A stretch of 64,000 nt of DNA from assembly GCA_027018935.1 (NCBI GenBank), contig JALUXZ010000070.1:6014-70013 (forward strand), given 5' to 3'. This stretch comes from Mariprofundaceae bacterium. GTDB taxonomy: Bacteria > Pseudomonadota > Zetaproteobacteria > Mariprofundales > Mariprofundaceae. A model generated the notes under the pieces. The model made no database searches, had not been told where the DNA came from, and was given only the letters and a program-made list of their open reading frames with translations. The translations under genes and the position numbers were made by a program. Shown here one piece after another: positions 27,159-49,166 of this stretch; positions within the stretch are counted from its first letter, which is position 1; every line of letters starts with the position of its first letter.

Positions 27159-28349
27159 ATGAAAAAACGTATAGTGGTGATTGCCATGACACAAGTTATG
27201 GCTTTGTTTTTTGGTGCATCTGTAGCATCGGCGGAGGCGGGTGGAATTGCAGTAGGCAACATGCAGCTTGTGCCCCAAATTACATTGGGTGAATCTCGAA
27301 ATGATAATATATTTTTGCAAGAGTCGGCAAATGCGATTAAAAAAAGTTGGATTACTACAATTGATCCCAGTGTTGCATTAAAGGCAGATGATGGTGCAAA
27401 TAAGTATGAATTGGGTTATAACTTGTCGGAAGGTATTTATCATCAAAGTCATGCAGATGATTTCATTGATCAAGTCGCCAGCTTTAAGGCAAACCTAGGT
27501 CTTTCGCGCAAATTAATGGTTGATTTTAATGTTGATTACAACTTAAGTCATGATACGCGAGGTTCAACCTTTACTGGTGGGGCTGCAGCAGCGGTTTCGA
27601 CTCCTGATAAATACCATGAAACGAATGTGGGAGCATCTGTAAATTATGGCGCAAATGCACATATAATTATAAGTGGCGATTATAGTAATAAACGCTATAG
27701 CAACAACCGTACGCGTACCATAGCACGTGACCTTGATACCATTGGCGGTATTGCTGAATTTGATTATGATTTAACAGGTAAAACATCAGCAGTGTTGGAA
27801 GCGCGTTACACGCAGTTTAACTATCAATATCAAACGGCTTTGGTAAATCTTGATAGTAGAGAGCAAGTATATTTTGTAGGGCTGAACTGGGAGGCTACTG
27901 GGAAAACATCAGGAAAGGCTCGCGTTGGTTACACGAAAAAGAACTTTACCAAGGCATCATTAATAGATGCTGGTTTTTTCAGTTGGGAAGTGGGTGTTGA
28001 ATGGTTGCCAATGAGCTATTCATCTTGGACTTTGAAAACAAGTTCAATGCCTTATGAAACCGATGGTTCAGGTAGTTTTATTAAGAATACGGGAGTTGAC
28101 CTTGCTTGGGATCATACATGGAATCAGCGTGTGCATCATGAGGCAACACTGAGTTACAGTAAAGCGGACTATCAGGGTGGTAGCGCGCGTGTAGATAATA
28201 TTACGAAGGCTAGTGCTTCAGTGAGTTATCAATGGCTGCGTTGGTTGGCTATTCAACCACTATATGAGTATACTAATAACTCATCAAATGCTGTAAAGGC
28301 TAGCTATAAACAAAACATTTGGACGCTTAATCTAGTAGGAACACTCTAG
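27159..28349 (+). CDS. Outer-membrane beta-barrel protein, putative polysaccharide-export porin partner
   Basis: Signal peptide (…FFGASVASA), then alternating amphipathic beta-strand pattern rich in Y/W/N/G over about 370 aa. Sits immediately upstream of the OPX gene. Confidence 0.6.
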   Translation: MKKRIVVIAMTQVMALFFGASVASAEAGGIAVGNMQLVPQITLGESRNDNIFLQESANAIKKSWITTIDPSVALKADDGANKYELGYNLSEGIYHQSHADDFIDQVASFKANLGLSRKLMVDFNVDYNLSHDTRGSTFTGGAAAAVSTPDKYHETNVGASVNYGANAHIIISGDYSNKRYSNNRTRTIARDLDTIGGIAEFDYDLTGKTSAVLEARYTQFNYQYQTALVNLDSREQVYFVGLNWEATGKTSGKARVGYTKKNFTKASLIDAGFFSWEVGVEWLPMSYSSWTLKTSSMPYETDGSGSFIKNTGVDLAWDHTWNQRVHHEATLSYSKADYQGGSARVDNITKASASVSYQWLRWLAIQPLYEYTNNSSNAVKASYKQNIWTLNLVGTL

Positions 28350-28381
28350 GAGCTTGGTGCTTGGAAAGTAGAGGGAGAGCC

Positions 28382-29143
28382 ATGAGAAAGGTATTGAATC
28401 ACTTGCTTGTAGCATGTATGGCATCTGTACTATGGGTGGCAGCTGCGAGCGCAGGCGATGTTGTGGATGAATACGAGCTTGGTTCGGGTGATAAAATTAA
28501 AATCCATGTTTTTGGTGAGCCTGAGTTAGATATGGAAGTTCAGTTGGGTAGTTCAGGAGATATACGTTATCCCTTTTTGGGAAGGGTGCATGCTGTTGGT
28601 AAGAAATTATCCGAATTGGAGAATATACTTGTTAAAGGGCTTGCCGATGGCTATTTAATTAACCCTCAAGTACGTGTTTCAATGGAAGAGTTTCGCTCGT
28701 TTTTTGTCAATGGTGAAGTAAAAAAACCTGGAGCGTACCCTTACAAACCTGGTCTTAATGCGCGCAAAGGAATTTCTCTTGCGGGTGGTTTTAATGAGGA
28801 TGCTGATAAAAATAAGATTTTCTTAATTCACGCCAAGGATAAAGATAAGCATGAAGAGAAAATAAAGCTTGAAACGAGAGTTTTGCCTGGTGATATTATT
28901 ACAGTAAAACGAAGCTTCTTTTTTGTGAATGGTGAAGTAGAACAGCCTGGAAAATATGCTTATCACGCGGGTATGACTTATCGCAAAGCTATTGCGATGG
29001 GCGGTGGTATGAAAGAACGTGCTGATGAAGATAAAATTTATGTTATTCATGATGGGCAAGGCGAAAATATGCATCATGTAGATAATATGGACACAGAAAT
29101 TCAATCTGGCGATGTTATTATTATTAAACAGGGATTGTTTTAA
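28382..29143 (+). CDS. Short outer-membrane polysaccharide export (OPX, Wza-like) protein without a C-terminal OM helix
   Basis: Signal peptide. Poly_export block YELGSGDKIKIHVFGEPELD ... IRYPFLGRVHAVGK ... INPQV. Two SLBB-like repeats (FFVNGEVKKPGAY and FFVNGEVEQPGKY). The protein ends directly after SLBB2. Confidence 0.85.
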   Translation: MRKVLNHLLVACMASVLWVAAASAGDVVDEYELGSGDKIKIHVFGEPELDMEVQLGSSGDIRYPFLGRVHAVGKKLSELENILVKGLADGYLINPQVRVSMEEFRSFFVNGEVKKPGAYPYKPGLNARKGISLAGGFNEDADKNKIFLIHAKDKDKHEEKIKLETRVLPGDIITVKRSFFFVNGEVEQPGKYAYHAGMTYRKAIAMGGGMKERADEDKIYVIHDGQGENMHHVDNMDTEIQSGDVIIIKQGLF

Positions 29144-29316: not shown

Positions 29317-31284
29317 ATGAGTGGAGTGGAGTGTAGGGTGCAAAACAATAATAACGTCGGTTCGTTTGTTGAAGAAGAAATAGACTTAAAGAAATATTGG
29401 CATATTATCAATCACCGTAAATGGGGGATTATGGGCTTAGCGCTTTTAATCACATTACTTGTGGCATTAGTTGTTCTTTCTATGACTCCTATATACAAGG
29501 CGACATCAACATTATTAATTGAGCAGGAGCAGCCTAAATTGCCATCTGTTGATGAATTATTTGCATTACAAGGTAAAGGTAGGGTGTATTACCTTACGCA
29601 AATAGAGTTGCTTAAGTCACGCAAGCTGGCTGAGCATGTTATTCACGATTTAAAACTTGAGAGTAATCAAGAGTTCTTACCGAAAAAAGGCGGATTTCAT
29701 CCCATCGAAACACTGAAAGCATGGCTTTCACTTGATGAAAAGGCTGAAAAAGAAAAGCCTATGCTTGATTTGATTGTTAATCAGCTTCAGAGACGCTTAA
29801 CCGTGTCTTTAATCAATGGCACACAACTAATTCAATTAAGCTTTGAGGCAGAGTCAGCGGTATTGGCGGCTCAAATGGCAAATGCCTTGGGTAATGCTTA
29901 TATTGATGATCAATTGGTATCACGACTTGAAATGACACAAAAGGCAACACGCTGGATGGAAGAGCGGATTGCCGTATTAAAAAATAAACTTGAGCAATCA
30001 GAAGCTGCGTTACAATCTTATAAAGAATCCAATGACCTTATTGATGTGAAAGGGGTTAGCACTTTAACCGCACAAGAGTTGGATGAATTAACCAGTCAAC
30101 TTGTGATATCGCGTGCTAAATATGCTGAACTAGCGAAACGCTATGGGGCGAAACACCCCAAGCTTATTGCGGCAAAATCTGAGCTTAGAGCAGCAGAACA
30201 GCAGCTTCTACGTAGTAAGGGTAAGATTCAGAATATTGGTCGGAAATCTGTGAAGTTACGAGAGCTACAGCGTCAAGTTGAAGGCAACCGTCAGCTGTAT
30301 GATACCTTTATGGAGAGTTTTAAAAAGGCTAGTCAGGCAGTGGATCTACAAGCTGCAAACGCACGTATTTCAGACCCTGCAATTGCCCCACTTGTGCCTA
30401 TCAAGCCAAAAGTAAACAAGATTATTGGACTGGCATTTTTTGCAAGCTTGATGTTAGGTGTTTTGTTGGCGTTACTCTTTGAATCACTGAACCGTACTTT
30501 TAAAATACCATCAGATATTGAAGAGAAACTCGATCAAGCTGTGCTGGGTATATTGCCACTGATTCAATCGAACGCCAAAAATCGTAAGGCACAGGCTATT
30601 GTGATGCTGGATGAGGGCGCGCAAAGCTCTTATGGTGAGGCGATGCGCACGATTCGTACGGGGTTGATTCTTTCAAGCTTAGATAATCCTCACAAAGTAA
30701 TCTTGGTGACATCATCTGTGCCAGGCGAAGGCAAAACAACAGTCAGTAGTAATTTAGCGATGGCGATGGGAAAAATGGAGAAAGTCCTGCTTATTGGAGC
30801 AGATTTGCGTAGACCCTCACTTTCAAAAGCCTTTGGTGCAGAAAGCTCGCTGGGTTTGTGTAATATTGTTGCAGGAACATCTAAATTTAGTGAATGCATT
30901 CATCATGTTAAGAGTGCAAGCATTGATTTCTTGCCATGTGGCATGCTGCCTCCTAATCCACTTGAATTGTTATCATCTCAACGTTTTGCCAAAACAATGA
31001 AACTTTTAGAAAAAAATTATGATCGTATTGTGATTGACTCGCCTCCTGTGCAGGCAGTAAGTGATGCATTGGTATTATCGAAATATGCCAAGGCAGTGGT
31101 TTATGTGGTGGAAGCTGATAAAACGCATCAAGATTTGGTAAAAAATGGTATCAAACGTTTGCTGCAATATGATGCACCGATTGCAGGGATTGTTTTGAAT
31201 AAATTTAATGTGGATAAATCAGTATCATATGGGTATGAATACAGTGGTTATTATGACCATTATGGCTATGATGAGAAGGCATAA
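29317..31284 (+). CDS. wzc: Wzc-type polysaccharide co-polymerase / BY tyrosine autokinase
   Basis: Wzz-like N-domain with two TM helices and a coiled coil. Walker A SSVPGEGKTT, Walker A' LLIGADLRRP, Walker B IVIDSPPV. Tyr-rich tail YGYEYSGYYDHYGYDE. Confidence 0.9.
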   Translation: MSGVECRVQNNNNVGSFVEEEIDLKKYWHIINHRKWGIMGLALLITLLVALVVLSMTPIYKATSTLLIEQEQPKLPSVDELFALQGKGRVYYLTQIELLKSRKLAEHVIHDLKLESNQEFLPKKGGFHPIETLKAWLSLDEKAEKEKPMLDLIVNQLQRRLTVSLINGTQLIQLSFEAESAVLAAQMANALGNAYIDDQLVSRLEMTQKATRWMEERIAVLKNKLEQSEAALQSYKESNDLIDVKGVSTLTAQELDELTSQLVISRAKYAELAKRYGAKHPKLIAAKSELRAAEQQLLRSKGKIQNIGRKSVKLRELQRQVEGNRQLYDTFMESFKKASQAVDLQAANARISDPAIAPLVPIKPKVNKIIGLAFFASLMLGVLLALLFESLNRTFKIPSDIEEKLDQAVLGILPLIQSNAKNRKAQAIVMLDEGAQSSYGEAMRTIRTGLILSSLDNPHKVILVTSSVPGEGKTTVSSNLAMAMGKMEKVLLIGADLRRPSLSKAFGAESSLGLCNIVAGTSKFSECIHHVKSASIDFLPCGMLPPNPLELLSSQRFAKTMKLLEKNYDRIVIDSPPVQAVSDALVLSKYAKAVVYVVEADKTHQDLVKNGIKRLLQYDAPIAGIVLNKFNVDKSVSYGYEYSGYYDHYGYDEKA

Positions 31285-31314: not shown

Positions 31315-32037
31315 ATGTATGATATTCATTGTCATCTACTGCCTGGGATTGATGATGGGGCGGATAATCTTGAACAATCCCTTGCATTAGCTCGCCACGC
31401 GGTAAGTGATGGTGTGACGCATATGGTTGTAACACCGCATATTCAACCTGGTCTTTATGAAAATAATCGCGCTTCAATTATGGCTGCTTTTAAGGTTTTT
31501 CAGTCGGGGCTTGTTGAGCATAATATTTCTTTGCATATTGCAATGGCTGCTGAAGTACGCCTATCTCCAGAAATCTTACCCATGCTTGAGCAGGATGATA
31601 TTCCGCTATTTGAAGCGATGGATGGTCATAAAACAATGCTTCTGGAGCTGCCACATAGCCATGTTCCACCAGGTACGGAGCAGATGCTAGGCTGGCTTCT
31701 TAAACAACATATAAATGTTTTGATTGCTCACCCTGAGCGTAATAAAGAATTGATGCGTAATCGCAATAAAATTGAAGCTTTGCATTATTTGGGTTGTAAG
31801 TTTCAAATTACAGGACGCTCTGTAATAGGCGGCTTCGGCGAGCCTTCACAGCAAGTTGCTGAATATATTTTAAAGAAAGGATGGTGTGATGTGTTGGCTT
31901 CTGATGCACATAACTTGCATCATCGTCCACCTGAATTATTTGCAGCTCAGCAGGCAGCAGCTGAACTGATTGGTGAAGTTGCCGCTGCTAAGCTAACCTA
32001 TGCATCCCCACAAAGTATGGTCGCGGGTTTGTTTTAG
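31315..32037 (+). CDS. PHP-family protein-tyrosine phosphatase (CpsB/YwqE-like)
   Basis: MYDIHCHLLPGIDDGA start, plus TPH, HPER and SDAH metal-ligand blocks. Confidence 0.85.
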   Translation: MYDIHCHLLPGIDDGADNLEQSLALARHAVSDGVTHMVVTPHIQPGLYENNRASIMAAFKVFQSGLVEHNISLHIAMAAEVRLSPEILPMLEQDDIPLFEAMDGHKTMLLELPHSHVPPGTEQMLGWLLKQHINVLIAHPERNKELMRNRNKIEALHYLGCKFQITGRSVIGGFGEPSQQVAEYILKKGWCDVLASDAHNLHHRPPELFAAQQAAAELIGEVAAAKLTYASPQSMVAGLF

Positions 32038-32732
32038 TGAGCGCACAAGGTGTCTCTGTATTACCTACGGGAGCTAAACGTATTGGGATGATGATTCTCA
32101 TTACCGTGCTGCTTGTGTTGATTGTATTTTCTGCGCGTGCTGGGGTGAGTTATGTGGTTCAATACCGAACCCATGCTGCGCTTGATCATTGGCAAAAGTC
32201 CCCAGACAAGAGACCAACATTGAATGCATGGCAGGGTATGTTGGATTCGGTAAAAGAAATGTTGGCTTTTGATGCAAAAAATGCTGACCTTCAGAATGCT
32301 TTGGCTCGCCTTTATTTTTACCGTGCAGGAAATATGGATAGCTCTGCCAAACAATCGTTGCAAGATTATAAACAAGCCATAGCAGGTTACCGAACTGTTA
32401 TAGCACTGAGACCTAGTTGGCCTTATGGCTATCTCAATTTGTTATATAATAAAGTTTTTGTGGGCGAGCTGGATGCAGAGATGCGAGATAGTTTGCTGCA
32501 TTTAATACAGCTTTCTCCATGGGAAAAAAACACTTTATCAGACACGGTAAAAGTAGCGGTTTTCGTTTGGCCAGGTTTAGATAAACAAAGCCAGCAGGCT
32601 GTTAAATCCTATTTACTGCTAACATCAGAGAAGCGTAAAGGTGAGGTGGTACGTGCTTTAAAAGAGAGTCAATTGAAAGATCGGTTTTGTCAGCAAATTG
32701 CTAGAGGTCAAGCAATGAGTGTATGCCGATGA
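32037..32732 (+). CDS. Membrane-anchored helical-repeat (TPR-like) protein of unknown function
   Basis: One N-terminal TM helix (MMILITVLLVLIVF), then an alpha-helical repeat-like region. GTG start overlaps the upstream stop. ATG 32088 is an alternative start. Confidence 0.4.
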   Translation: MSAQGVSVLPTGAKRIGMMILITVLLVLIVFSARAGVSYVVQYRTHAALDHWQKSPDKRPTLNAWQGMLDSVKEMLAFDAKNADLQNALARLYFYRAGNMDSSAKQSLQDYKQAIAGYRTVIALRPSWPYGYLNLLYNKVFVGELDAEMRDSLLHLIQLSPWEKNTLSDTVKVAVFVWPGLDKQSQQAVKSYLLLTSEKRKGEVVRALKESQLKDRFCQQIARGQAMSVCR

Positions 32733-32775
32733 GAAGTTTAAATACAGTTTTTTTTTGTATGATTTTTATAGCTTG

Positions 32776-33477
32776 ATGTTTCCATTAAAGCTATGTCAGA
32801 GGTTCTTCTTCTGCACTGTATTGCTGCTCAGTGTGCCTGTCAATGCTGGTAAAGGAGGCTTTTCTGCCGAGTTTCTCCATAATATTGAATTGCACTATGG
32901 CAGTGCTGCTAAGCGGCGGGTGAGTGATTGGCAAACGTTGATAAAGTTTGAACAGGCTGAGCATAATAGCGAGTGGAGCCTTATTCATACAGTAAATAGC
33001 TTTTTTAATAGAATGCACTTTATATCTGATAAGAAGCATTGGAATAGAGAAGATTATTGGGCAACACCTGTGGAATTTCTATCCACCAATGCTGGCGATT
33101 GCGAAGATTTCTCCATTGCAAAATACTTTACACTTCTTGAAATTGGTGTGCCTGATGAGCGACTGCGTATTACGTATGTGAAAGCGATACGCCTGAACCA
33201 AGCGCATATGGTGCTCGCCTACTATGAAACACCTGAAAGCGAACCGTTGATTTTAGATAATTTAACCAAGCGTATTCAAGCTGCATCACAACGCAGTGAT
33301 TTATTACCCGTGTACAGTTTTAATGGTAGTCATTTGTGGATGGCGAAAGAACGTGGGCAAGGTCGTCGTGTGGCAGGAGGCTCTCAACGTATCAACCTGT
33401 GGCGTGATTTAAATCTCCGTATGCAACAAGAACGAAATTTAGGCCGTAGTTTTACGGCTAAAAATATAACACGATAA
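32776..33477 (+). CDS. lapG: Periplasmic transglutaminase-like cysteine protease (BTLCP), LapG-like
   Basis: Signal peptide, then EDYWATPVEFLSTNAGDCEDFSIAKYF (catalytic Cys), RITYVKAIRLNQAHMVLAYY (His), PLILDNL (Asp) and PVYSFNGSHLW. Confidence 0.85.
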   Translation: MFPLKLCQRFFFCTVLLLSVPVNAGKGGFSAEFLHNIELHYGSAAKRRVSDWQTLIKFEQAEHNSEWSLIHTVNSFFNRMHFISDKKHWNREDYWATPVEFLSTNAGDCEDFSIAKYFTLLEIGVPDERLRITYVKAIRLNQAHMVLAYYETPESEPLILDNLTKRIQAASQRSDLLPVYSFNGSHLWMAKERGQGRRVAGGSQRINLWRDLNLRMQQERNLGRSFTAKNITR

Positions 33478-33486
33478 GGAAATATT

Positions 33487-35421
33487 ATGACATTATCCAA
33501 ACAATTGATTGCACTTATTTCTGGCATGTTTCTACTTATTTTTATAGGTACATTTTGGATTAGTGTGGAGAATACGCGTTCTTACTTGATGTTGCAGCTA
33601 GAAACTCAAACTCAAAATATCGCTGATTCTTTCGGATTATCGCTGGCATCACATATGCAACGTAAAGATATAGCAGCCGTGGATACCATGGTCAATGCAG
33701 CCTTTGATAGTGGTTATTATAAGTCGTTAACATTAAGTGATATATCTGGAAAAATTATTATTGAACGTGACAATACCTCGAAAATTGAGGGGGTGCCTGC
33801 ATGGTTTATCCAGCGTTTAACATTGGAAACGCCACAAGTGGAATCCATTATTACAACAGGCTGGATGCAAACAGGTAGGTTGACGATAGTGGCTCACCCA
33901 GGGCTGGCGTATAAAAAATTATGGCAAACGACCCAGCAAACATTTTGGTGGTCGGTTATGGCATTTGTTGCTTCTTTGGGAGCCGTTCTTTTATTGCTCA
34001 GAACAATACTTCACCCGCTTAAAGCTGTTGAACAACAAGCATTGGCGATTTGTGATCGTGAATTTCCAGTGCAAGAACAAATACCTCGTACGCGCGAATT
34101 GAAACGGGTGGTCTTAGCAATGAATAATATGTCGGAGAAACTACGAGATTTTATTCATAAGCTTAGTGATCGTGCCGAAAAAATGCATAAAGAGGCCCAT
34201 GAAGATGCGCTGACAGGTTTGAGAAACCGGCGTGCCTTTAACACCATGCTGGAGAGTATATTACATGCTCGAGAAGAAGGCATGGTCGGCTCATTGGTGA
34301 TTGTTCGCATGAGTGCTTTTGCAGATTATAATAAGCAACACGGTATTCAGGCTGGTAATGAATTGCTTGTCGATATAGCTAAAAAACTTCATGAAATATC
34401 AATGCAATATTCTACTGCTGAAGTATTCCGTATGAGTGGTACTGATTTTTCCATGCTTTTACCAAAGACTGACTTGGTGCTTGCAGATGAAGTGGGCCGA
34501 AGCTTGAGCGATGCGATGAATGCTCTAGCGATAACGCACAATATTGAAGAATTAGCACATATTGGCATAGCTTTATTCAAGGATGGTTATCAAATGAGTG
34601 AGATTTTGTCGGATGCCGATGCGGCTCTGGCATCGGCTCGCTATATGGGGGTGAATAGTTATGCTGTGCAAAGGAAAAAGAGTGAAGCCCTGGGCAATGA
34701 TGCATGGAAAAAACTGATTGAATCAAGCTTATCACATAAAAAAATTGAGCTATTAGGGCAGCCGGTTTTTAATAAGTTAGGGGAAGTGTTATACAAAGAA
34801 GTATTTATCCGTATACGTGATGAATTTGGAGAAGCTATTGCGCCAGGTGTATTTGTTTCGATGGCAGATCGTTTGGCTTTAAGTGAACAGCTAGATAAAC
34901 TAGTCATTATGCAGGCAACAGAATTAATTGAGAAAAATACTACAGTATATGGAGTATTGGCGGTGAACTTATCAGTATATTCGATAAGTAAGCCATCATT
35001 TCGGAATTGGTTGATGCAGCATTTTGATAAGCATTCTGATTTGGGAAACAGGTTGATATTTGAAGTAAGTGAACAAGGTCTGATGCCGCATATTGAAAGT
35101 GCCAAAAATTTTGTTGATTTGCTACATAGCAAGGGGAGTCAGATTGTTATGGAAAATTTTGGAACCCGTTTAAGCTCATTCCAAACTTTACATCAACTTA
35201 AAGTAGATTTTATTAAAATGAGTGGCGGTTATACCCGTGATATTGCCAATCATGGCGATAACCGTTTTTTCTTACAAACAGTGACGGATATTGCTCACGG
35301 CTTGGGTATTAAAGTTATTGCTGAACAAGTGGAAACAGAAGGTGAAGCAAAGGCATTGGAAAAAACTGGAATTTATGTAATGCAGGGCTATTACCTTGGA
35401 GTACCTGAATTGTTGCGTTAA
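33487..35421 (+). CDS. lapD: Inner-membrane c-di-GMP receptor with degenerate GGDEF and EAL domains, LapD-like
   Basis: The order is TM, periplasmic domain with a GW hairpin (G125-W126), TM, HAMP, GGDEF domain, EAL domain. The GGDEF signature is replaced by SGTDF. The EAL signature is replaced by EVF. Confidence 0.85.
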   Translation: MTLSKQLIALISGMFLLIFIGTFWISVENTRSYLMLQLETQTQNIADSFGLSLASHMQRKDIAAVDTMVNAAFDSGYYKSLTLSDISGKIIIERDNTSKIEGVPAWFIQRLTLETPQVESIITTGWMQTGRLTIVAHPGLAYKKLWQTTQQTFWWSVMAFVASLGAVLLLLRTILHPLKAVEQQALAICDREFPVQEQIPRTRELKRVVLAMNNMSEKLRDFIHKLSDRAEKMHKEAHEDALTGLRNRRAFNTMLESILHAREEGMVGSLVIVRMSAFADYNKQHGIQAGNELLVDIAKKLHEISMQYSTAEVFRMSGTDFSMLLPKTDLVLADEVGRSLSDAMNALAITHNIEELAHIGIALFKDGYQMSEILSDADAALASARYMGVNSYAVQRKKSEALGNDAWKKLIESSLSHKKIELLGQPVFNKLGEVLYKEVFIRIRDEFGEAIAPGVFVSMADRLALSEQLDKLVIMQATELIEKNTTVYGVLAVNLSVYSISKPSFRNWLMQHFDKHSDLGNRLIFEVSEQGLMPHIESAKNFVDLLHSKGSQIVMENFGTRLSSFQTLHQLKVDFIKMSGGYTRDIANHGDNRFFLQTVTDIAHGLGIKVIAEQVETEGEAKALEKTGIYVMQGYYLGVPELLR

Positions 35422-35542
35422 GTGCTGAAATAACGCAAATGTAAGTTACTTTAAGTTCATATTGCTACTTCAGCTTGTGCTTTGGATGATTTTTGCTATG
35501 CTGCCGATAAATATTTTAATTACCTGAGAGGGAATAACTCTA

Positions 35543-35938
35543 ATGAAGAAAATAATTATTACGATGATGCTGCTGGCAATAAATATGGTTGCGATAGACA
35601 GTTTTGCAGAAACATCCTCAAAGGTTCCTGATACAGCAACGATTGAAGAGGCTATTAAAGCTGGTTCAGAACAAACTGCTGATTTGCTTAAAGAGATGAT
35701 TGATGAGAGCGAAATGACCCTGACAGAGGCTGTGAAAGCCATGATTGAAAAAACAACAGATAAGCAAACGCCCATTGTGAATGCTGCAAAATTAATTGAC
35801 CCTAATTTTACTTTTGAGTTTGACCCTACTGAAAAATTTGCTGCGCCAGCAGCAGGTGATGATACAGAGACTGGGGATACCCCTACATTTACTCCAGGTA
35901 CGCCTGCTCCCAATGGCGGCGGTAGCGTTAGCCCTTGA
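35543..35938 (+). CDS. Small secreted protein with a PAAG motif and a Pro/Thr/Gly-rich C-terminal tail
   Basis: Sec-type signal MKKIIITMMLLAINMVAIDSFA, then a helical acidic domain. P102-A103-A104-G105 is followed by DDTETGDTPTFTPGTPAPNGGGSVSP. A strong terminator follows. Confidence 0.55.
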   Translation: MKKIIITMMLLAINMVAIDSFAETSSKVPDTATIEEAIKAGSEQTADLLKEMIDESEMTLTEAVKAMIEKTTDKQTPIVNAAKLIDPNFTFEFDPTEKFAAPAAGDDTETGDTPTFTPGTPAPNGGGSVSP

Positions 35939-35960
35939 TAGATGGCTTTATTGTTTTGCA

Positions 35961-35988
35961 AAAGGCTCCGATAATCGGAGCCTTTTTT
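35961..35988 (+). terminator. Rho-independent terminator
   Basis: ggctccg-ataat-cggagcc followed by tttttt. Confidence 0.8.
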
Positions 35989-36009
35989 GTTTGCCGAGAA
36001 TGCTAATGT

Positions 36010-37446
36010 ATGAGTGTTTGTTCTATGTCACAGATGCAAAAAAATAATATTTTTTATGCATATTTAGGGTTGTTAATATGGCTGCCTATTCCTTTGGGTA
36101 GTAAGCATCCTTGGGCGGTATCAATTGCTGAAGTATGGTGTTTTTCCCTAGCGATTTTCTCACTGGTTTCTTGTTTTAGGCATGGAGTTGTGTTGCCGCA
36201 AGCATTTAGAGTCGCGCGACCAGCATTGTTTCTTTTAGCCTTAAATTTGGCTTGGTTAATATTTCAGTGTCTACCGCTTCCTATAAGTCTACTAACACTA
36301 CTGTCACCGCATGCAGCAGCCTTGCAACAATTAAATGATGCAAGCGTTGCTATGGCATCTATCTCGCTTGATAGGCATGCAACATGGCTTGATGTTGTTG
36401 AGGCGAGTTATCTATTTACTTTTTTTTGCCTTACATTGTATGTTATTGATTCAAAACAAAAGATTCGCATATTGGTTTACGTTATTGTTCTGAGTGCACT
36501 GGCACAGGCTGTTTATGGAGCCTTTATGATTTTATCGGGCACTGAGTATGCCTTCTTTGTTTCCAAGGCTGACATAAATTCACATATAGGCTCTGCAACA
36601 GGAACATTTACGAACCGTGACCACCTCGCGGGCTATCTTGAAATGGCACTGGCACTTGGTATTGGTTATATGCTATCAATGATGAATGATGCTGGTTCAT
36701 TGGGGGGCTGGAAAGTATGGTTAAGAAAGTGGTCTGATATACTATTAGGCTCTAAAGCGCGACTTCGATTGATTTTAATTCTGCTTTGTTTGGGATTGGT
36801 GCTGACGCATTCACGTGGTGGTAATATTGGTTTTTTTACTAGCTTGCCGATTGCAGGTGTTGTTTTTATGCTTTTTGCGCGCAAAAAACCAAGGGCGACA
36901 GTTATATTTTTAAGTAGTATTATTCTACTTGATATTCTTTTGATGGGCTCTTGGGTAGGCGTATCAAAGGTCATGACACGGTTAGAAAACACCTCAATAC
37001 AAACAGAGCAACGCGATGATGTTTATGCAGCTACTTTACCATTGATTCAAGACTATTGGCTTACAGGAACAGGGGCAGGAACTTATTTTGAAACCTTCCC
37101 TACATATAAAACATCTTCTCTTTCGGGCTACTGGAACCACACACATAATGATTACCTTGAAATATTAGCAGAACAAGGCGTGATAGGCTTTGGCTTGCTT
37201 GCATCGGTTGTCCTGTTTGCATTATTTATCATTGTTCAGACCTTACGAAGGCAACGTTCATCGTTAGCATTGGGAATGAGCTTTGGTAGTCTTATGGGTA
37301 TTGTAGCCTTATTGGTTCATTCAGCGGTTGATTTTAATTTGCAGATCCTTGCTAACAGTAGTTTGTTTATGTTGCTGCTGGCTTTGCCGATGATTTTTAG
37401 GTGTTTAAATACGAAAGTTAGGGAGGTGCTGATTAACTCTGAATAA
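36010..37446 (+). CDS. Wzy_C-domain membrane protein (O-antigen ligase / PglL-type O-oligosaccharyltransferase-like)
   Basis: 478 aa with about 12 TM helices. LVLTHSRGG and HNDYLEILAEQG blocks in the large periplasmic loop region. The last 8 codons and the stop codon are supplied by the MITE-B insertion. Confidence 0.75.
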   Translation: MSVCSMSQMQKNNIFYAYLGLLIWLPIPLGSKHPWAVSIAEVWCFSLAIFSLVSCFRHGVVLPQAFRVARPALFLLALNLAWLIFQCLPLPISLLTLLSPHAAALQQLNDASVAMASISLDRHATWLDVVEASYLFTFFCLTLYVIDSKQKIRILVYVIVLSALAQAVYGAFMILSGTEYAFFVSKADINSHIGSATGTFTNRDHLAGYLEMALALGIGYMLSMMNDAGSLGGWKVWLRKWSDILLGSKARLRLILILLCLGLVLTHSRGGNIGFFTSLPIAGVVFMLFARKKPRATVIFLSSIILLDILLMGSWVGVSKVMTRLENTSIQTEQRDDVYAATLPLIQDYWLTGTGAGTYFETFPTYKTSSLSGYWNHTHNDYLEILAEQGVIGFGLLASVVLFALFIIVQTLRRQRSSLALGMSFGSLMGIVALLVHSAVDFNLQILANSSLFMLLLALPMIFRCLNTKVREVLINSE

Positions 37447-37633: not shown

Positions 37634-37991
37634 CAGAGGGTGAAAGTGATTAAGATTTTGAAAGCCATGATGTTTATTTTTATGCCTAGCTTACCCAGTA
37701 CAGGCAGTGTTAATGTTGGGGTTACTTCTGTAGGGAGGCAATATAAAGAAATGTTGGGAAAGAAAATTGGCTATCTTACAAGCGCTTGGAAAGCTATATC
37801 GCCACTTACGCAGGGTGAGGGATGGCAAAATTTAGGGAACGGAGATCAGAGTTTGAATATGTTGCGCAAATTATCTTTGGTTGATATTGCTTTATGGAAT
37901 CAGCCACAGAAACATAATGTCTTGAGAAGCACAATGTTGTGGTCTAATAATAGCTGGAAAACCATACCTGTTGGTGCTACTTAACGTGGTG

Positions 37992-38807
37992 ATGAATATA
38001 AATAAGTGGTTGCCTAACGTGCCGCGTTATATTGAATTATTCATGGTTGTTTTGCTGGCATGGGTTGTTGCATCTTGGTGGCAAACGGGCGACATAAAGG
38101 GTGAATTTGCATTAAGCACGCTTGATGAAACTCAGGAAGTGAAGCCCTTATTGGATATGAAAAAAATGCTTGTTATTCCCATTTTTGGTGCAAAAAAGGC
38201 GCGACCAATTGTTCAAAAAAAAGTCATCAAGCCAGTGGTGCTAAGTCGTTTAAATATTGTGCTTTTGGGGACTGTTCTCGCTGGTGAACGCTCTGCTGCT
38301 GTTGTAGCCTTAAATGGCAAGCAGCAGGCATTTGTGTTGGGGGATGCTATCCAGGCGGGTGTTACTCTGACGCGCGTGGAAGCGGCAGCTATCGTTATAA
38401 ACAACTCAGGTAGGGTTGAACGTATTGAGCTGAAAAAAGAAAAAGCTGCTGTAGGCATTCATTCCTCTAGAATAACAAAACCACAGAGGATACAACATAC
38501 CTTTACACGCTCATATCTGAATCAAGAAATAGGTAATTTTCCGAAGTTGTTGAGCCAGGCGCGTGTATTTCCTCATTTTAGTAATGGTAAGCCAGATGGT
38601 TTTGTGATTAAGGCGATTGTGAATGGCTCGTTGTATCAAAAAATAGGTCTGAAAAATGGTGATATACTACGTAAAGTGAATGGTGTCGGAATAACAGGTG
38701 CTAAACAGGCTATGGCGATGTATAAAAATTTACAAAGTGCAAGATTCATTGATTTGGAGTTGTTACGTAATAACGCTATCATGCCCATCCATTATGAAAT
38801 TAAGTAA
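37992..38807 (+). CDS. gspC: Type II secretion system protein C
   Basis: N-terminal TM helix (IELFMVVLLAWVVASWW), an HR-like middle region and a C-terminal PDZ (GLKNGDILRKVNGVGI). Sits immediately upstream of gspD. Confidence 0.8.
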   Translation: MNINKWLPNVPRYIELFMVVLLAWVVASWWQTGDIKGEFALSTLDETQEVKPLLDMKKMLVIPIFGAKKARPIVQKKVIKPVVLSRLNIVLLGTVLAGERSAAVVALNGKQQAFVLGDAIQAGVTLTRVEAAAIVINNSGRVERIELKKEKAAVGIHSSRITKPQRIQHTFTRSYLNQEIGNFPKLLSQARVFPHFSNGKPDGFVIKAIVNGSLYQKIGLKNGDILRKVNGVGITGAKQAMAMYKNLQSARFIDLELLRNNAIMPIHYEIK

Positions 38808-40717
38808 TGAACAGGAAAATAATAATGTGTTCTAAATTGATAAAAACTGGCTGTATGCTGCTACTACTGCTGTTTTCACAGGCTGTATTTGCTGCCGATA
38901 TAACGTTGAATTTCAAAAATGCCGATATTCGCGCGTTTATTGATTTTGTAGCGGGGTTTTCAGGCAAGAATTTTTTAGTCGACAATCGAGTGAAGGGCAC
39001 TGTTAGTATTGTTTCACCCTCAGCTGTTGATGAAATAGAGGCATATAATATTTTTCTATCGGTGCTGGAAGTCAATGGTTTTGCGGCTGTAGATGCAGGA
39101 AGTGTGATTAAGATTGTACCTAGAGCTGAAAGCAAGCAAAAGGCTGTACCTGTGCATGAGGGGAACGCTAGAAGTAATGATGCGATGGTGACGCAGGTTT
39201 TACGCCTGAAATATGCAAATTCACAGCAGCTGGTGGCTTTGATTCGCCCTTTAATTTCACCCAATAGTCATCTGGTGGCATACCCGCGTGGTAATATGCT
39301 TTTGCTTACGGATTCATCCAGCAATATTCGTCGCATTCAACAGGTGCTAAAGCTTTTGGATAGGAAAGATGCAGTAGGAGTTAAAATATTTACGCTGAAA
39401 TATGCCTCAGCAGGCAAGCTAGCATCAACATTGACCAAGCTTTATCCACCAACGTCCAATTCCGCATTGGGTATGAAAGTAATTGCTCATCAACCTGGTA
39501 ACATATTGGTTGTAGTGGGAGCACCACAAGTGGTGAATGAAGTGGCTAGCGTCATAGAGAAGCTCGATATAGCTCCTGAATCTGATAGTGATCGCCTTCA
39601 GGTTAGATACCTTAAATATGCGAAGGCCAAGAATATAGAAAGCGTGCTCGCAAGCTTAATGGGGTCGAAAGAATTACCAGGAAAATCATTGTTTGTAGGT
39701 GATGTGAAAGTGGTGGCTGATGAGGCTACGAACGCATTGCTTATTACTGCGGACCCAAGTGATATTGATGCTGTTGGGCGGATTGTTGATAAGCTGGATG
39801 TGCGTCGCAGACAGGTGTTGATTGAAGCGTTGATTGTGGAGGTGAGTGGAAACTCTATCCAGCGTTTCGGTGTAGAATGGATGGCAAGCAGTGGTATTGG
39901 GGCTGGCGTACAGAGCTTTCAAAATATAAAATCAGTGGGCGCAGGGCTTACTACGAATGCTGCATTAGCAACGCCTGCAAGTGTTAGCACAGTATTAACT
40001 GCAACGGCTCCTACAGGGCTGACTTTAGGTGTTGTAAACAAAGCATTGTCCATTGGTGCATTGCTGCATGCGTTGGAATCAGACAATGATGCCAATGTGT
40101 TATCCACACCCAATTTATTAACCTTGGATAATGAGGAAGCAGAAATTGTTGTAGGACAGAATGTGCCTTTTATTACGGGCACAAGCGCATCGACAGGAAC
40201 GGCAAATCCCAATCCTTTTCAAACCATTGAGCGTAAAGATATTGGTTTGACATTACGCGTAACACCACAGATTTCTGGGGATGATTCAGTCACGTTGGAT
40301 ATTTATCAGGAGATTTCTAACATTGACACAAAGGCTGGCGTGCAAGGCTCGGATTTAATTACCACCAAACGCTCGATTAAAACCAAAGTGTTGGCGAATG
40401 ATGGGCAAATGATTGTATTGGGTGGTTTGATGCGTGAGGATGAGACTGGCAAAGTGCAAAGGGTGCCTTGTATTGGCAGTGTACCATTGCTAGGAGAGCC
40501 TTTTAAGTTTACAGAGAACACAAAGGCAAAAACAAATTTAATGGTTTTTCTAAAACCACATATTATTAAAAGCTCGAGCTACTTGGAGTCGATAACCAAT
40601 CGAAAATATAATAATATAAAAGGTCTTTATGAGCATAAAGTTGAGGGAGGCACGATTTTATTTCCTCAAGAGCAAAAGCATATGCCTAAAACAATGCAGC
40701 CCCATGAAAATAAATAA
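38807..40717 (+). CDS. gspD: Type II secretion system secretin
   Basis: Signal peptide, N0-N3 domains (ITLNFKNADIRAFIDFVA) and a secretin core (VLSTPNLLTLDNEEAEIVVGQNVPF ... VPLLGEPFKF). Confidence 0.95.
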   Translation: MNRKIIMCSKLIKTGCMLLLLLFSQAVFAADITLNFKNADIRAFIDFVAGFSGKNFLVDNRVKGTVSIVSPSAVDEIEAYNIFLSVLEVNGFAAVDAGSVIKIVPRAESKQKAVPVHEGNARSNDAMVTQVLRLKYANSQQLVALIRPLISPNSHLVAYPRGNMLLLTDSSSNIRRIQQVLKLLDRKDAVGVKIFTLKYASAGKLASTLTKLYPPTSNSALGMKVIAHQPGNILVVVGAPQVVNEVASVIEKLDIAPESDSDRLQVRYLKYAKAKNIESVLASLMGSKELPGKSLFVGDVKVVADEATNALLITADPSDIDAVGRIVDKLDVRRRQVLIEALIVEVSGNSIQRFGVEWMASSGIGAGVQSFQNIKSVGAGLTTNAALATPASVSTVLTATAPTGLTLGVVNKALSIGALLHALESDNDANVLSTPNLLTLDNEEAEIVVGQNVPFITGTSASTGTANPNPFQTIERKDIGLTLRVTPQISGDDSVTLDIYQEISNIDTKAGVQGSDLITTKRSIKTKVLANDGQMIVLGGLMREDETGKVQRVPCIGSVPLLGEPFKFTENTKAKTNLMVFLKPHIIKSSSYLESITNRKYNNIKGLYEHKVEGGTILFPQEQKHMPKTMQPHENK

Positions 40718-40722
40718 ATTAA

Positions 40723-42261: not shown

Positions 42262-43457
42262 GTTTGTTTGTGTGGCAGGCTTTGAATGCTTCTGGTCAAC
42301 GTAAACGCGGCGAAATTGAAAGTGACTCAGAACGTTCTGCGCGCAAACAACTCAAACAACAGGGCTTGATTGTTCAGCGTCTGACATTACAAGAAGGGCA
42401 TAAAAAATCAGATAATCTTAACAAGAAGAAAAGTTTGAATGGTGTTGAAACAACACTATTTCTTCAGCAATTATCGACGTTAACATCAGCAGGTATGACA
42501 CTAAGTGAAGCATTATCTGCCGTGGCAGATGGTATGGAGGTTAAGCGGGCGCGCCGTGCTGTCTCGTTTGTGCGTCAGCAGGTGTTAGAAGGTTCAAGCT
42601 TGGCGAATGCATTACGTGCCATCGGCATGGATGATGTGGTTTGCAACATGGTTGCGGCAGGTGAGGAAACGGGGCAATTGGAAGCGGTTTCTGAACGGCT
42701 TTCTGAACTGTTGGAAAACCGACAACAAATGAATCAGGAGCTATTATCGGCAATTTTATATCCATTGATTATTTTGTGTTTTGGTATGTTGGTGATGCTT
42801 GTTTTACTGACATGGGTTGTGCCACAAATTGTGTCGGTATTTGAGCATACAGGTGGTGAGTTACCTGGTTTAACGCAGTGGGTCATTGCAGCATCAGATA
42901 TATTACGTGAGTATGGTTTGTTGCTACTGATTTCGGGAGCGGGATTGCTGTTAGCGGCAAGTTTGGCGATGCGCCGTGAATCGGTGCGTGATTGGCGAGA
43001 TATGTGGCTTTTACGTTTGCCTGCCTTATCTAACTTATTGAGTAAAATTGAAATTGCGCGTTTTTCACGAACTTTGGGTATGTTATTATCGGGTGGGGTA
43101 TCGACTTTGGCTGCGATGCATATTGCTAACCAAAGCTTTGTTTTATTGCCTTTTCAGCGTTTGGGTGAAAAGGCGCGGGAATCATTGCGTGAAGGTGGTA
43201 ATTTATCAGATGCCTTTAGAGCTGGGCATGTACCGCATTTAGCTGTGCAGTTAATTTCAGTGGGTGAGAAAAGTGGGCAATTGGATAAGATGCTATTACG
43301 TGTTGCAAACCAATATGAGCAGGAAATATCACGTAATTTAAAACGTATGTTAACTGTAGTGGAGCCAGCATTAATGTTGGTGATGGCGGTGATGGTAGGG
43401 CTTATGGCGGTTGCTATTTTATTGCCCATTGTCGAAATGAATAGTTTGGTACGCTGA
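42258..43457 (+). CDS. gspF: Type II secretion inner-membrane platform protein
   Basis: 399 aa, duplicated GspF/PilC domain, three TM helices, coupled to gspE. Confidence 0.95.
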   Translation: MSLFVWQALNASGQRKRGEIESDSERSARKQLKQQGLIVQRLTLQEGHKKSDNLNKKKSLNGVETTLFLQQLSTLTSAGMTLSEALSAVADGMEVKRARRAVSFVRQQVLEGSSLANALRAIGMDDVVCNMVAAGEETGQLEAVSERLSELLENRQQMNQELLSAILYPLIILCFGMLVMLVLLTWVVPQIVSVFEHTGGELPGLTQWVIAASDILREYGLLLLISGAGLLLAASLAMRRESVRDWRDMWLLRLPALSNLLSKIEIARFSRTLGMLLSGGVSTLAAMHIANQSFVLLPFQRLGEKARESLREGGNLSDAFRAGHVPHLAVQLISVGEKSGQLDKMLLRVANQYEQEISRNLKRMLTVVEPALMLVMAVMVGLMAVAILLPIVEMNSLVR

Positions 43458-44436: not shown

Positions 44437-44444
44437 GGTAGGAA

Positions 44445-49098: not shown

Positions 49099-49110
49099 GC
49101 CTTCATTGGT

Positions 49111-49166
49111 TTGCTATGAGTGAAAATCAACATCGTTTGACTCGTGCGAGTTTTTTCGAGGTGCCC
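49111..49166. repeat. Half copy (left arm, reverse orientation) of MITE family A
   Basis: ttgctatgagtgaaaatcaacatcgtttgactcgtgcgagttttttcgaggtgccc is the reverse complement of the first ~56 nt of family A. Confidence 0.65.

Follow-up and report, generated by a model that had tools for sequence, protein, structure and literature searches.

The Lap circuit, in which c-di-GMP, LapD, LapG and a LapG substrate act in series, is a paradigm of inside-out signaling, and its known outputs consist only of giant adhesins. The published determinants of a LapG substrate are a targeting helix, a DP dipeptide and a [T/A/P]AAG site, and the criterion for such a substrate is Ca2+-dependent cleavage that is abolished by an AA-to-RR substitution (PMC13090378). 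For LapA and DvhA, models have been reported with the site at the Cys-His-Asp triad of LapG and the helix docked on the LapG beta-sheet, at an ipTM above 0.8 (PMC13090378). A survey found 2,720 genomes that encode LapD and LapG without a recognizable LapA-like protein, and unrelated substrates were proposed for them (10.1101/2020.05.11.089839). It has also been known since 2014 that HvyA of Caulobacter, a BTLCP encoded in a capsule locus together with Wza, Wzc, a metallophosphatase and an O-antigen polymerase/ligase, abolishes capsulation by its protease activity, through a substrate not yet named (PMC4241560).

On the polysaccharide side, two further systems are relevant. Short OPX proteins (280 aa or less, without an outer-membrane helix) pair with a beta-barrel gene within five genes to give a composite translocon of the VpsN/VpsM type (PMC9601211). 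O-linking OTases all carry a Wzy_C domain; among them, TfpO and TfpM act on the C-terminal Ser/Thr of a protein encoded immediately upstream, and TfpM is able to transfer long polysaccharide chains (PMC9829042).

The window analyzed here, a stretch of 64,000 nucleotides from a Mariprofundaceae bacterium, contains an EPS export module with lapG and lapD, followed by a small gene and a ligase-family gene (positions are those of the window):

27159..28349, + strand, outer-membrane beta-barrel (BBP2_2, EpsL/VpsM-like; Pfam PF10082 E=1e-32, weak TIGR03014/03016)
28361..29143, + strand, short OPX/Wza protein of 260 aa with Poly_export and two SLBB domains (Pfam), adjacent to the barrel gene
29317..31284, + strand, Wzc-type PCP/tyrosine autokinase (Wzz, GNVR and AAA_31; TIGR01005/01007)
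31315..32037, + strand, CpsB/PHP-type tyrosine phosphatase (PF19567 E=1e-44)
32037..32732, + strand, VpsP-like protein with one N-terminal TM segment (15-33) and a TPR region (TPR_11; NF038257 E=4e-15, below cutoff)
32719..33477, + strand, LapG, periplasmic Ca-dependent BTLCP cysteine protease (Peptidase_C93; NCBIfam LapG E=6.5e-68)
33487..35421, + strand, LapD-like protein (LapD_MoxY_N, HAMP, GGDEF and EAL; NCBIfam LapD E=1e-139)
35543..35938, + strand, small-protein gene (ATG start, 131 aa, TGA stop), with homologs and conserved synteny
35960..35994, + strand, intrinsic terminator (12-bp stem, 3-nt loop, T-run; z = -4.15), between the small gene and the next
36010..37446, + strand, Wzy_C#2, membrane protein of the O-antigen ligase superfamily (478 aa, about 10 TM; PF04932 E=3e-23, weak TIGR03097 "O-glycosylation ligase")

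The Wza protein, with its 260 aa and its position directly after the BBP2_2 barrel gene, fits the short-OPX definition in both length and barrel coupling, and the two proteins are predicted to form the periplasmic and outer-membrane halves, respectively, of a composite polysaccharide translocon. The barrel is co-conserved with the export module in most loci compared, and the VpsP-like gene lies in the module or beside Wzy_C#2, again in most loci. LapG aligns with the Legionella LapG structures 4u65 and 4fgo (E=1e-48) across the GDCED, AHMVL and LDN contexts and, judged by this alignment, keeps its catalytic context. The LapD protein aligns with P. fluorescens LapD (3pjw) and with the Legionella periplasmic domain (4u64), has TM segments at 7-25 and 157-175, and looks like a degenerate receptor. 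The window ORFs that were scanned include no T1SS genes.

The small gene begins 121 bp after the end of lapD, with lapG and the VpsP-like gene just upstream, and its start is preceded 9 nt upstream by GAGAGGGA, read as a ribosome-binding site. Its product can be divided into four parts:

35543..35608, + strand, predicted Sec signal peptide, residues 1-22 (cut predicted between DSFA and E, read from the sequence)
35633..35797, + strand, four-helix domain, residues 31-85 (AlphaFold2 on a 14-sequence alignment, pLDDT 82-86)
35822..35857, + strand, LapA-type cleavage cassette DP-TEKFAA-PAAG, residues 94-105 (from spacing, hhalign and an NF033682 match; unique in the window)
35858..35935, + strand, disordered acidic Pro/Thr/Gly-rich tail, residues 106-131 (pLDDT below 50), ending in GGGSVSP

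The N-terminus, MKKIIITMMLLAINMVAIDSFA followed by ETSS, reads as a Sec/SPase-I signal in its n/h/c layout, which all family members share, and has S-F-A at positions -3 to -1. The preliminary description had placed a 131-aa, Sec-secreted protein directly after lapD, with FAAPAAGDD at residues 99-107, a 26-residue tail after PAAG and no RTX region, and each of these features was recovered (the Sec signal as read from the sequence, the absence of RTX repeats in the form of no Pfam or NCBIfam domain at all). The helical domain of about 80 aa given there is indeed helical, and its size has to be reduced to about 55 aa. A search of 1.84 billion proteins returned only 11 representatives of the family, neither the small protein nor any of seven diverse relatives was assigned to a family by Pfam or NCBIfam at normal thresholds, and Foldseek detected no structural neighbor of the AlphaFold2 model in the PDB (best E=2.8).

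Several other identities were rejected. The small protein is not a lipoprotein, as it has no lipobox Cys, nor a pilin, since its Sec signal is of the ordinary kind, with an AXA-type site, and a pilin leader, N-terminal hydrophobic helix and pilin domain are all absent. A PEP-CTERM or other C-terminal sorting tag, which would consist of a motif with a TM helix and a basic cluster behind it, was ruled out by the end ...NGGGSVSP, which includes no hydrophobic or TM segment. An overlapping minus-strand ORF (35470-35961) was dismissed because the plus-frame protein keeps its conservation down to 26% identity and comes with a signal peptide, a ribosome-binding site and a terminator; 13 of 20 homologous intergenic regions contain a hairpin and T-run comparable to that terminator.

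The cassette carries the central finding. In the AlphaFold2 model, the last helix (residues 72-85, pLDDT about 85) occupies the position of the LapG targeting helix, DP dipeptides come after it at 86-87 and 94-95, and PAAG follows at 102-105, so that the three published substrate determinants occur in order, with a predicted scissile bond between Ala103 and Ala104 (codons at 35849-35854). In full, the LapA-type layout runs from a helix through DP-x6-[T/P]AAG into a Gly-rich stretch, and all of it is present. The DP-x6 spacing is that of all 27 real LapA retention modules compared (27/27), and it is kept in 20 of the 23 DP-bearing family members. When a profile of 25 family members was aligned with one of 27 LapA N-termini by hhalign, a match of 92.8% probability (E=3.9e-7) was obtained, with TAAG placed on TAAG, versus 0.6% for reversed controls. 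Among 18,950 NCBIfam models, retention_LapA (NF033682) matches the most members (7/14, best E=2e-4), always on the same segment of about 20 residues (profile positions about 100-121 of 145). By these profile comparisons, the segment is homologous to the part of genuine LapA retention modules that LapG cleaves. Membership of the retention-module family as such was rejected, since the NF033682 scores (7.7 bits for the small protein, 21.5 for the best member) are far under the 50-bit cutoff and the body of the protein is different.

The cassette is also rare. By chance, the tetrapeptide alone would be expected 0.02 times per 131-aa protein and the full DP-x6-[TAP]AAG cassette 1.6e-5 times; it was found once in 37,253 aa of six-frame ORFs in the window, and the non-family ORFs of loci L001-L088 (812,704 aa) do not contain it. 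Family sites include TAAG (seven times), PAAG (four times), AAAG and SAAG, as well as TASG (four times), TVSG and TSSG, with TLAG (L018), TATG (L024), TSAG (L055) and TGAG (L035) as further variants of the Ala-Ala pair. The pair is replaced in a third of the members, some of them beside LapG/D. To our knowledge, AA-to-RR is the only Ala-Ala substitution that has been tested.

Beyond the cassette, the most conserved feature of the family lies at the C-terminus, where GGG..S is invariant and the conserved Ser stands one or two residues short of the end (position -2 or -3). A C-terminal SPx/VSx motif was detected in 27 of 42 proteins encoded upstream of Wzy_C#2 orthologs, versus a background of 3.7% (p ~1e-28). 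The gene pair itself is conserved at 32-46% Wzy_C#2 identity, including orthologous pairings at 43% and 37%, in L001, L005, L006, many of L009-L088, L089, L116, L117, L128 and L146. Wzy_C#2 carries a periplasmic-loop motif, HTHNDYLE, that is invariant in three orthologs; it is unrelated to the other Wzy_C protein of the locus (10823-12292), and a sequence search of the PDB gave no match at E<=1. It could be a plain polymerase or a lipid-A-core ligase. The LapG gene at 32719-33477, the link to the downstream Wzy_C#2 and the S-P-x tail are points that go beyond the preliminary description.

The distribution of the family was examined in two independent sets of loci, one anchored on Wzy_C#2 in genomes and the other on LapG in metagenomes. 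A family member was present in 8/8 loci of the first set with LapG/D versus 12/72 without (Fisher p=4e-6), and in the second set it followed lapD directly in 6/6 loci that combine LapG/D with an EPS module versus 0/74 others (p=3e-9); both tests ignore kinship, and many contigs are short. Pooled, the two sets comprise 14 independent EPS-module loci with LapG/D, every one with a family member. In about 22 LapG-anchored loci, a LapA-type adhesin takes the place of the family member, and the two never occur together. Zetaproteobacteria, Burkholderiales, Chromatiales and unclassified Gammaproteobacteria all have cassette-bearing signal-peptide proteins, whose genes either follow lapD directly or lie between lapG and Wzy_C#2. 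The family also occurs in Wzx/Wzy polysaccharide loci of Gallionellaceae, and its carriers include Mariprofundus, Sideroxydans, Gallionella and Halieaceae. Two loci, L024 and L035, keep the small gene beside lapD at a distance of 5 kb from Wzy_C#2.

The association has a looser side as well. Cassette-bearing members with no LapG/D within 5-10 kb occur in L015, L022, L033 and L034, and the link between tail and Wzy_C#2 is present without the cassette in many lineages. In LapG/D-free loci, the tail proteins of L057, L058 and L065 and those of Halieaceae have no cassette, which indicates a modular design. The N-terminal bodies are highly variable: some members have the four-helix domain, others from one to over 12 copies of a 15-aa Ala-rich repeat, and others again an unrelated domain of 150 aa. 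In a crude tree, the EPS-associated LapGs are interspersed with adhesin-associated ones, which implies no change of specificity.

Considering these features together, the small protein is best read as a LapG substrate of a new class that is routed by Sec and, more speculatively, as a cleavable periplasmic stopper for a ligated polysaccharide. The reading as a whole, in which it would be the substrate of the adjacent LapG, with a tail that serves as the working end for Wzy_C#2, is judged probable. A Sec-routed class had been put forward in the preliminary description, and it gains support from the profile homology and the three-part substrate definition; the site is conserved, as DP-x6-[T/P]A[A/S]G, in homologs down to 26-37% identity, and small proteins adjacent to lapD recur in the lineages named above. 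The roles suggested there fared unequally: an EPS tethering factor is favored by the synteny, and specific support was found neither for a released peptide signal nor for a pilus tether.

Mechanistically, Sec would export the protein to the periplasm and the signal peptide would be removed, leaving a helical body, the LapG recognition cassette (helix, DP, PAAG) and a 26-residue Gly/Pro/Thr thread with the GGGSVSP end. At high c-di-GMP, LapG would be held at the inner membrane by LapD and the small protein would stay intact. At low c-di-GMP, we infer that the freed LapG would cut between Ala103 and Ala104, separating an 81-residue body from a 28-residue tail. The tail, which co-varies with the neighboring Wzy_C#2, would be the working end, and its near-terminal Ser would most plausibly be modified by Wzy_C#2, by analogy with TfpO/TfpM, which glycosylate the C-terminal Ser/Thr of an upstream-encoded protein. 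In the most coherent mechanism, the polysaccharide of the Wzx/Wzy locus would be ligated to the tail and then exported through the short-Wza/beta-barrel translocon, with the folded body remaining periplasmic as a stopper; the polymer would thus be kept on the cell until a LapG cut released it. In its most explicit form, this amounts to a "retention module for a polysaccharide", in which Wzy_C#2 would move EPS from undecaprenyl-PP onto the near-terminal Ser, the body would jam, and the LapG cut would shed the EPS, which would be a cell-bound capsule at high c-di-GMP and be lost once c-di-GMP falls. This specific version is tentative and on balance unlikely; jamming of the translocon by a 55-residue helical domain is a proposal.

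The same cassette and synteny would also suit a LapG substrate that works as a switch and not as a tether, with no covalent glycan. Here, the intact protein or a fragment would activate or inhibit a periplasmic EPS component (Wzy_C#2, the VpsP-like TPR protein, Wzc or the OPX/barrel translocon), and the LapG cut would toggle polymer synthesis or export in response to c-di-GMP. A membrane-anchored VpsP-like TPR protein is co-conserved in the module, and TPR proteins commonly bind short C-terminal peptides. The observation that HvyA stops capsulation at unaltered levels of export proteins (PMC4241560) also fits a small, unseen regulator. However, such variable N-terminal bodies are easier to reconcile with a bulky, passive domain than with one that binds a specific partner, the gene pairs most strongly with that of a ligase-family enzyme, and the near-terminal Ser in the Gly-rich tail is the most conserved feature and resembles a modification site, so a pure switch is regarded as rather improbable, and a little less so than the explanation considered next. 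According to that explanation, the small protein would be an acceptor or accessory protein of Wzy_C#2 that LapG does not process; the LapA-like segment would be a shared low-complexity linker, and LapG/LapD would act on an adhesin elsewhere.

Such a role is compatible with the cassette-bearing members that have no LapG/D nearby (L015, L033 and L034), with the replacement of Ala-Ala in a third of the family and with the cassette-free tail/Wzy_C#2 links; moreover, the window covers 64 kb of the genome, and a LapA-like adhesin might be encoded elsewhere. It is nevertheless held to be improbable, given that an exact DP-x6 spacing and a controlled profile match are unlike a generic linker, that the cassette is absent from the 812,704 aa of other ORFs, that a family member occurs in all 14 LapG/D EPS-module loci and never beside a giant adhesin, and that the small gene comes after lapD, not Wzy_C#2, in L024 and L035. 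The last possibility, that PAAG arose by chance in a small ORF that is spurious or of no note, would draw on the frequency expected of the tetrapeptide alone, on the lack of a Pfam or NCBIfam family at threshold and on the scarcity of representatives in the protein search. Against this stand the ribosome-binding site, the signal peptide, the terminator, homologs to 26% identity with kept synteny, the failure of the reversed-profile controls, and a full cassette that is unique and expected only 1.6e-5 times; this possibility is effectively refuted. The preferred reading remains that of a LapG substrate whose tail serves Wzy_C#2.

The small-protein family is a concrete candidate both for the missing LapG substrates and for the HvyA question, as it would represent a Sec-exported mini-substrate built into Wzx/Wzy loci of Zetaproteobacteria, Gallionellaceae, Burkholderiales and several Gammaproteobacteria. 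If the cleavage is true, c-di-GMP would control a polysaccharide system post-translationally and from the periplasm. If the tail is glycosylated, a new way of attaching and releasing EPS would follow, together with a new acceptor/ligase pair that is possibly useful in glycoengineering. Should the retention-module version apply, it would describe a protein-anchored exopolysaccharide releasable by proteolysis, and it would offer an answer to how Wzy-dependent polymers leave their lipid carrier yet stay on the cell, as well as to what BTLCPs such as HvyA cut.

Among the systems described so far, the Vibrio VPS-II module (VpsM/VpsN/VpsO/VpsP) resembles the window locus in pairing a short OPX protein with a barrel and in encoding a kinase of the Wzc type and a member of the VpsP family; the window proteins, for their part, score under the cutoffs of the VpsP and EpsL models. 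LapG/LapD of V. cholerae have been described as controlling large adhesins (PMC6890996) and not as parts of the vps locus, and no small cassette protein has been described in Vibrio vps loci. In the literature on LapG/BTLCP proteins with polysaccharide export, no earlier small LapG substrate in EPS loci was found. HvyA and the window LapG are both LapG-family periplasmic proteases encoded inside a Wzx/Wzy polysaccharide export locus (PMC4241560); a LapD/c-di-GMP partner, however, plays no part in the control of HvyA, which depends on cell-cycle transcription and instability.

TfpO/TfpM and Wzy_C#2 are alike, by description, in being Wzy_C membrane enzymes of about 420-480 aa whose acceptor gene (a candidate one in the case of Wzy_C#2) is small and lies directly upstream, and Wzy_C#2, at 478 aa, carries the Wzy_C domain and lies slightly above the TfpO/TfpM-type range of about 420-470 aa (PMC9829042). 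The pair of small gene and Wzy_C#2 and its C-terminal Ser motif, which recalls the Ser/Thr determinant at the extreme C-terminus of the TfpO/TfpM acceptor, are conserved across phyla. The TfpO/TfpM acceptor is a pilin with a terminal Ser/Thr, whereas the small protein is not a pilin and has its Ser at -2 or -3.

CdrA of P. aeruginosa provides a precedent for a non-T1SS LapG substrate, in which a periplasmic stopper is cut off and the cargo exits via an outer-membrane beta-barrel (PMC4694147; 10.1101/2020.05.11.089839). CdrA itself is large, an adhesin that has CdrB as a dedicated transporter, whereas the small protein is tiny and the only beta-barrel of its locus is part of a polysaccharide translocon. 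LapA-like adhesins have been defined by a length of more than 1000 aa, by RTX repeats or a T1SS signal, and by NF033682 at cutoff (10.1101/2020.05.11.089839); the small protein has 131 aa, no Pfam or NCBIfam domain, and the site with a match below that cutoff. The LapA retention domain has been described as beta-strand (PMC13090378), whereas the body of the small protein is helical; the small protein is expected to reach the periplasm via Sec and ends 26 residues past the site, where LapA continues into the adhesin. What it shares with the T1SS adhesin retention modules (LapA, MapA, FrhA, CraA and DvhA; NF033682) is a folded periplasmic domain, a helix, DP-x6-[T/P]AAG and a Gly-rich segment, with both encoded beside lapG-lapD and with a profile match that covers exactly the cleavage segment.

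A large Wzx/Wzy exopolysaccharide (EPS) locus in the window carries the small gene, an ORF at 35543-35938 (+), close to its end; the features of the locus are as follows.

Features of the EPS locus
Priming transferase, rml genes, glycosyltransferases and flippase, within the locus
10823-12292, first Wzy_C protein
27159-28349, BBP2_2 beta-barrel (export block)
28361-29143, short Wza of 260 aa (export block)
29317-31284, Wzc (export block)
31315-32037, CpsB phosphatase (export block)
32037-32732, VpsP-like membrane-anchored TPR protein
32719-33477, LapG
33487-35421, LapD
36010-37446 (+), Wzy_C#2, the second Wzy_C protein

LapG matches Legionella LapG structures (E=1e-48) and retains the sequence contexts of its catalytic Cys, His and Asp, and LapD aligns to P. 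fluorescens LapD, its degenerate GGDEF (SGTDF) and EAL (KEV) motifs appearing, as expected, to fit a receptor. The window ORFs that were scanned include neither a T1SS nor a giant adhesin. The 260-aa Wza beside the barrel fits the composite OPX/beta-barrel translocon type, which includes VpsN/VpsM (PMC9601211). The two Wzy_C proteins are mutually unrelated (BLASTP E=0.017) and could divide the roles of polymerase and ligase between them; of the two, Wzy_C#2 alone has the small protein as its partner. The locus also encodes a 1298-aa NHL-repeat/Big_2 protein (17363-21259), in which the DP-x6-TAAG cassette is absent, and two small predicted membrane proteins of two TM segments each without family assignment (24003-24536 and 24526-24951); in the close homologue locus, unannotated genes (L001:35-857) stand at the corresponding place, between the GT2 glycosyltransferase and the barrel gene. 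Starting 525 bp after Wzy_C#2 is a complete gene cluster for type II secretion (gspC, D, E, F ... N; 37971-50033), and in Beggiatoaceae (L041, L042, L051) a longer Wzy_C#2 orthologue (~680 aa) lies 3-5 kb from gspC-gspD.

In agreement with the preliminary description, the small gene has 131 codons, PAAG occupies residues 102-105 within FAAPAAGDD (99-107), and a tail of 26 residues follows. The gene has an ATG start, and the N-terminus (MKKIIITMMLLAINMVAIDSFA before ETSS) is predicted to be a Sec signal of SPase-I type; it lacks a lipobox. A putative ribosome-binding site (GAGAGGGA) stands 9 nt upstream of the start. AlphaFold2, given an alignment of 14 sequences, models four helices at residues 31-85 (pLDDT 82-86) and disorder from residue 86 on, so the folded part, previously put at about 80 residues, is reduced to about 55. 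A 163-aa TTG-start ORF overlapping in antisense (35470-35961, minus strand) was rejected as a shadow ORF, the plus-frame protein being the one conserved in distant homologues.

The best-supported statement is that the small protein is probably a LapG substrate of a new class, with cleavage being predicted. According to a 2026 structural study, the optimal LapG substrate comprises a targeting helix, a conserved DP turn and a scissile Ala-Ala in [T/A/P]AAG (PMC13090378). All three are present in this order in the small protein: predicted helix 72-85 continues straight into a first DP, and a second DP lies six residues ahead of PAAG (DP-TEKFAA-PAAG). A word-index search recovered four close homologues with identical synteny, and an exhaustive profile search matched only 11 proteins among 1.84 billion representatives, so the family is rare and fast-evolving. 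Relatives at 26-37% identity keep the core DPTxxL(D/N)(A/P)-[T/P]-A-[A/S]-G, after which come an acidic or Gly-rich linker that varies and the C-terminus GGGG(A/V)(V/S)(S/P)x; the site itself, whose conservation the preliminary description had proposed to check, is retained at that distance.

The NCBIfam model matching the largest number of family members (7/14, best E=2e-4) was NF033682, which describes the LapA retention module; each match falls on one and the same 20-residue stretch around the site, at a score far under the 50-bit cutoff. A LapA-type N-terminal query served as bait only, retrieving 122 real proteins, many NCBI-named 'retention module-containing protein', which align as LQQAIAAGxDPTxxLEA[T/P]AAGP...GGGH. 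With hhalign, 25 small-family sequences matched 27 real LapA N-termini at 92.8% probability (E=3.9e-7), TAAG on TAAG, versus 0.6% (E about 0.1) with either alignment reversed. The DP-x6-site spacing holds in 27/27 LapA modules and 20 of the 23 DP-bearing family members. A chance origin of PAAG in the small protein is extremely improbable: the window's six-frame ORFs (37,253 aa) contain the strict cassette a single time and 812,704 aa of non-family ORFs not at all, and composition predicts 1.6e-5 per 131-aa protein.

Two independent samplings of loci were examined, anchored on Wzy_C#2 (80 genome loci) and on LapG (80 metagenome loci). In the former, where the export block, VpsP and Wzy_C#2 are widely conserved, a family member was present in 8/8 loci with LapG and/or LapD versus 12/72 without (Fisher p=4e-6, loci counted without phylogenetic correction); two of the eight are weak, L009 being partly masked and L078 having a degenerate site (profile E=0.065). 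In L024 and L035 the small gene stands immediately after lapD, with Wzy_C#2 5 kb away; in L031 and L055 it is flanked by lapG and Wzy_C#2, the L031 site reading AIEAGADPSIIGQAPAAG, essentially a LapA site. Among the LapG-anchored loci, six contain EPS export genes, and the adjacency flagged for checking recurs in all of them, with a family member right after lapD (6/6 versus 0/74 others, p=3e-9); about 22 carry a LapA-type retention module instead, and none of the 80 has both. A deep subclass (L116, L117, L128, L146; LapG identity 51-55%, Wzy_C#2 32-34%) keeps the order lapG-lapD-small-wzyC2, its small proteins ending ...LLAAIAAGADPTTVSTATAAGG...GGGDTTASTN. A crude NJ tree splits the EPS-associated LapGs, which are ordinary LapGs, into at least five groups intermingled with adhesin-associated ones.

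Counter-evidence comes from Zetaproteobacterial members with no LapG/D within 5-10 kb (L015, L033, L034, L022) and from about one-third of members, some adjoining LapG/D, in which Ala-Ala is replaced by A-S, L-A, A-T or S-A. In three Mariprofundus loci, the gene just before the small gene or Wzy_C#2 encodes an HD_5 protein (L010:660-1295, L011:181-792, L014:3698-4291; E=2e-37 for L014) that reads as HD-GYP type; where LapG/LapD are not neighbours, it may provide a further connection to c-di-GMP. Two close-homologue MAGs labelled Flavobacteriaceae or Flavobacteriales (L001, GCA_002400505.1; L025) carry LapD/LapG and a proteobacterial-type EPS module resembling Zetaproteobacterial or Gammaproteobacterial loci, and are probably mis-binned or mislabelled.

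The pairing of the small gene with Wzy_C#2 persists where lapD is missing (Wzy_C#2 identity 43% in L005 and 37% in L006). Of 42 signal-peptide proteins encoded before Wzy_C#2 orthologues in different lineages, 27 end ...SPx or ...VSx, versus 3.7% of background ORFs (p about 1e-28), for example GGGSVSP, GGASPS, KKKKPSPS, CPSPH, GDPSPS, VSPN and KSPN. In L024, L035, L057, L058, L065 and L078, which have VpsP immediately before Wzy_C#2, the protein with the tail heads the operon, ahead of the barrel gene. Body length is highly variable. Tiny signal-peptide proteins encoded before the Wzy_C#2 orthologue in Halieaceae and relatives (L040, L049, L066, L071, L073, L074, L077), unrelated to the family, end ...CPSPH or in a poly-lysine run then PSPS (e.g. 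KKKKKKKKKKKKPSPS), sharing the S-P-x rule with no LapG cassette and no LapG/D nearby. Longer proteins, likewise encoded before Wzy_C#2 orthologues (L072:4329-5363, L084:44-859, L024:4087-4695, L025:3206-3643, L012:54-740) contain 2 to >12 tandem 15-residue Ala-rich units (PxxAAAITTAAVTAA), of which the window protein appears to hold one or two degenerate copies; those of L024, L025 and L012 are profile-positive family members, and those of L072 and L084 are not. Since the cassette is absent from tail proteins of loci without LapG/D and the tail is shared by otherwise unrelated proteins, the design, as read from these sequences, is modular. The folded body varies and the LapG cassette is optional; a Gly-rich thread of 20-45 residues then leads to a conserved end that contains Ser. 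A strong intrinsic terminator lies 3' of the small gene, with a comparable one in 13/20 homologous intergenic regions. Terminators placed in this way are typical where a small protein made in abundance is encoded ahead of an enzyme of low abundance.

For the pairing of tail and enzyme, the nearest documented analogy is that of the O-linking oligosaccharyltransferases, every one of which has a Wzy_C domain; TfpO, of 440-470 aa, and TfpM, of 420-440 aa, modify the C-terminal Ser/Thr in the product of the gene just before their own, and TfpM can transfer long polysaccharide chains (PMC9829042). Combined with LapA/CdrA retention logic, this pairing yields a coherent tether-and-release model, in which EPS would be ligated to the small-protein tail and would leave by way of the OPX/barrel translocon, with the body serving as a periplasmic stopper, and at low c-di-GMP LapG cleavage would shed the polymer. 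Such anchoring by protein and release by proteolysis is a speculative reading, less likely than not. Caulobacter HvyA, a BTLCP in a capsule export locus built of the same parts, abolishes capsulation through its activity, its substrate being unidentified, an effect that agrees in direction with LapG-driven shedding (PMC4241560).

A cleavable regulatory switch with no covalent glycan would draw on the same cassette and LapG/LapD association; the near-terminal Ser of the tail, which looks like a modification site, and the pairing with Wzy_C#2 speak against it, and this reading is rather unlikely. That the protein is a Wzy_C#2 acceptor or accessory uncut by LapG is favored by pairing without lapD and by members with altered Ala-Ala, is opposed by the LapA-like cassette and its co-occurrence with LapG/LapD, and seems quite improbable.

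As a predicted LapG substrate, the small protein would work like a LapA retention module, yet it is not a member of the LapA type, being too small for a LapA-like adhesin and without its RTX repeats (10.1101/2020.05.11.089839), and scoring below the NF033682 cutoff. It likewise resembles a TfpO/TfpM acceptor but, unlike one, is not a pilin. The literature searched described no small LapG substrate that depends on Sec, and no case of LapG/LapD lying within EPS export loci. The MapA study counted 2,720 LapD/LapG genomes without an identifiable LapA-like protein and predicted convergent LapG substrates (10.1101/2020.05.11.089839).
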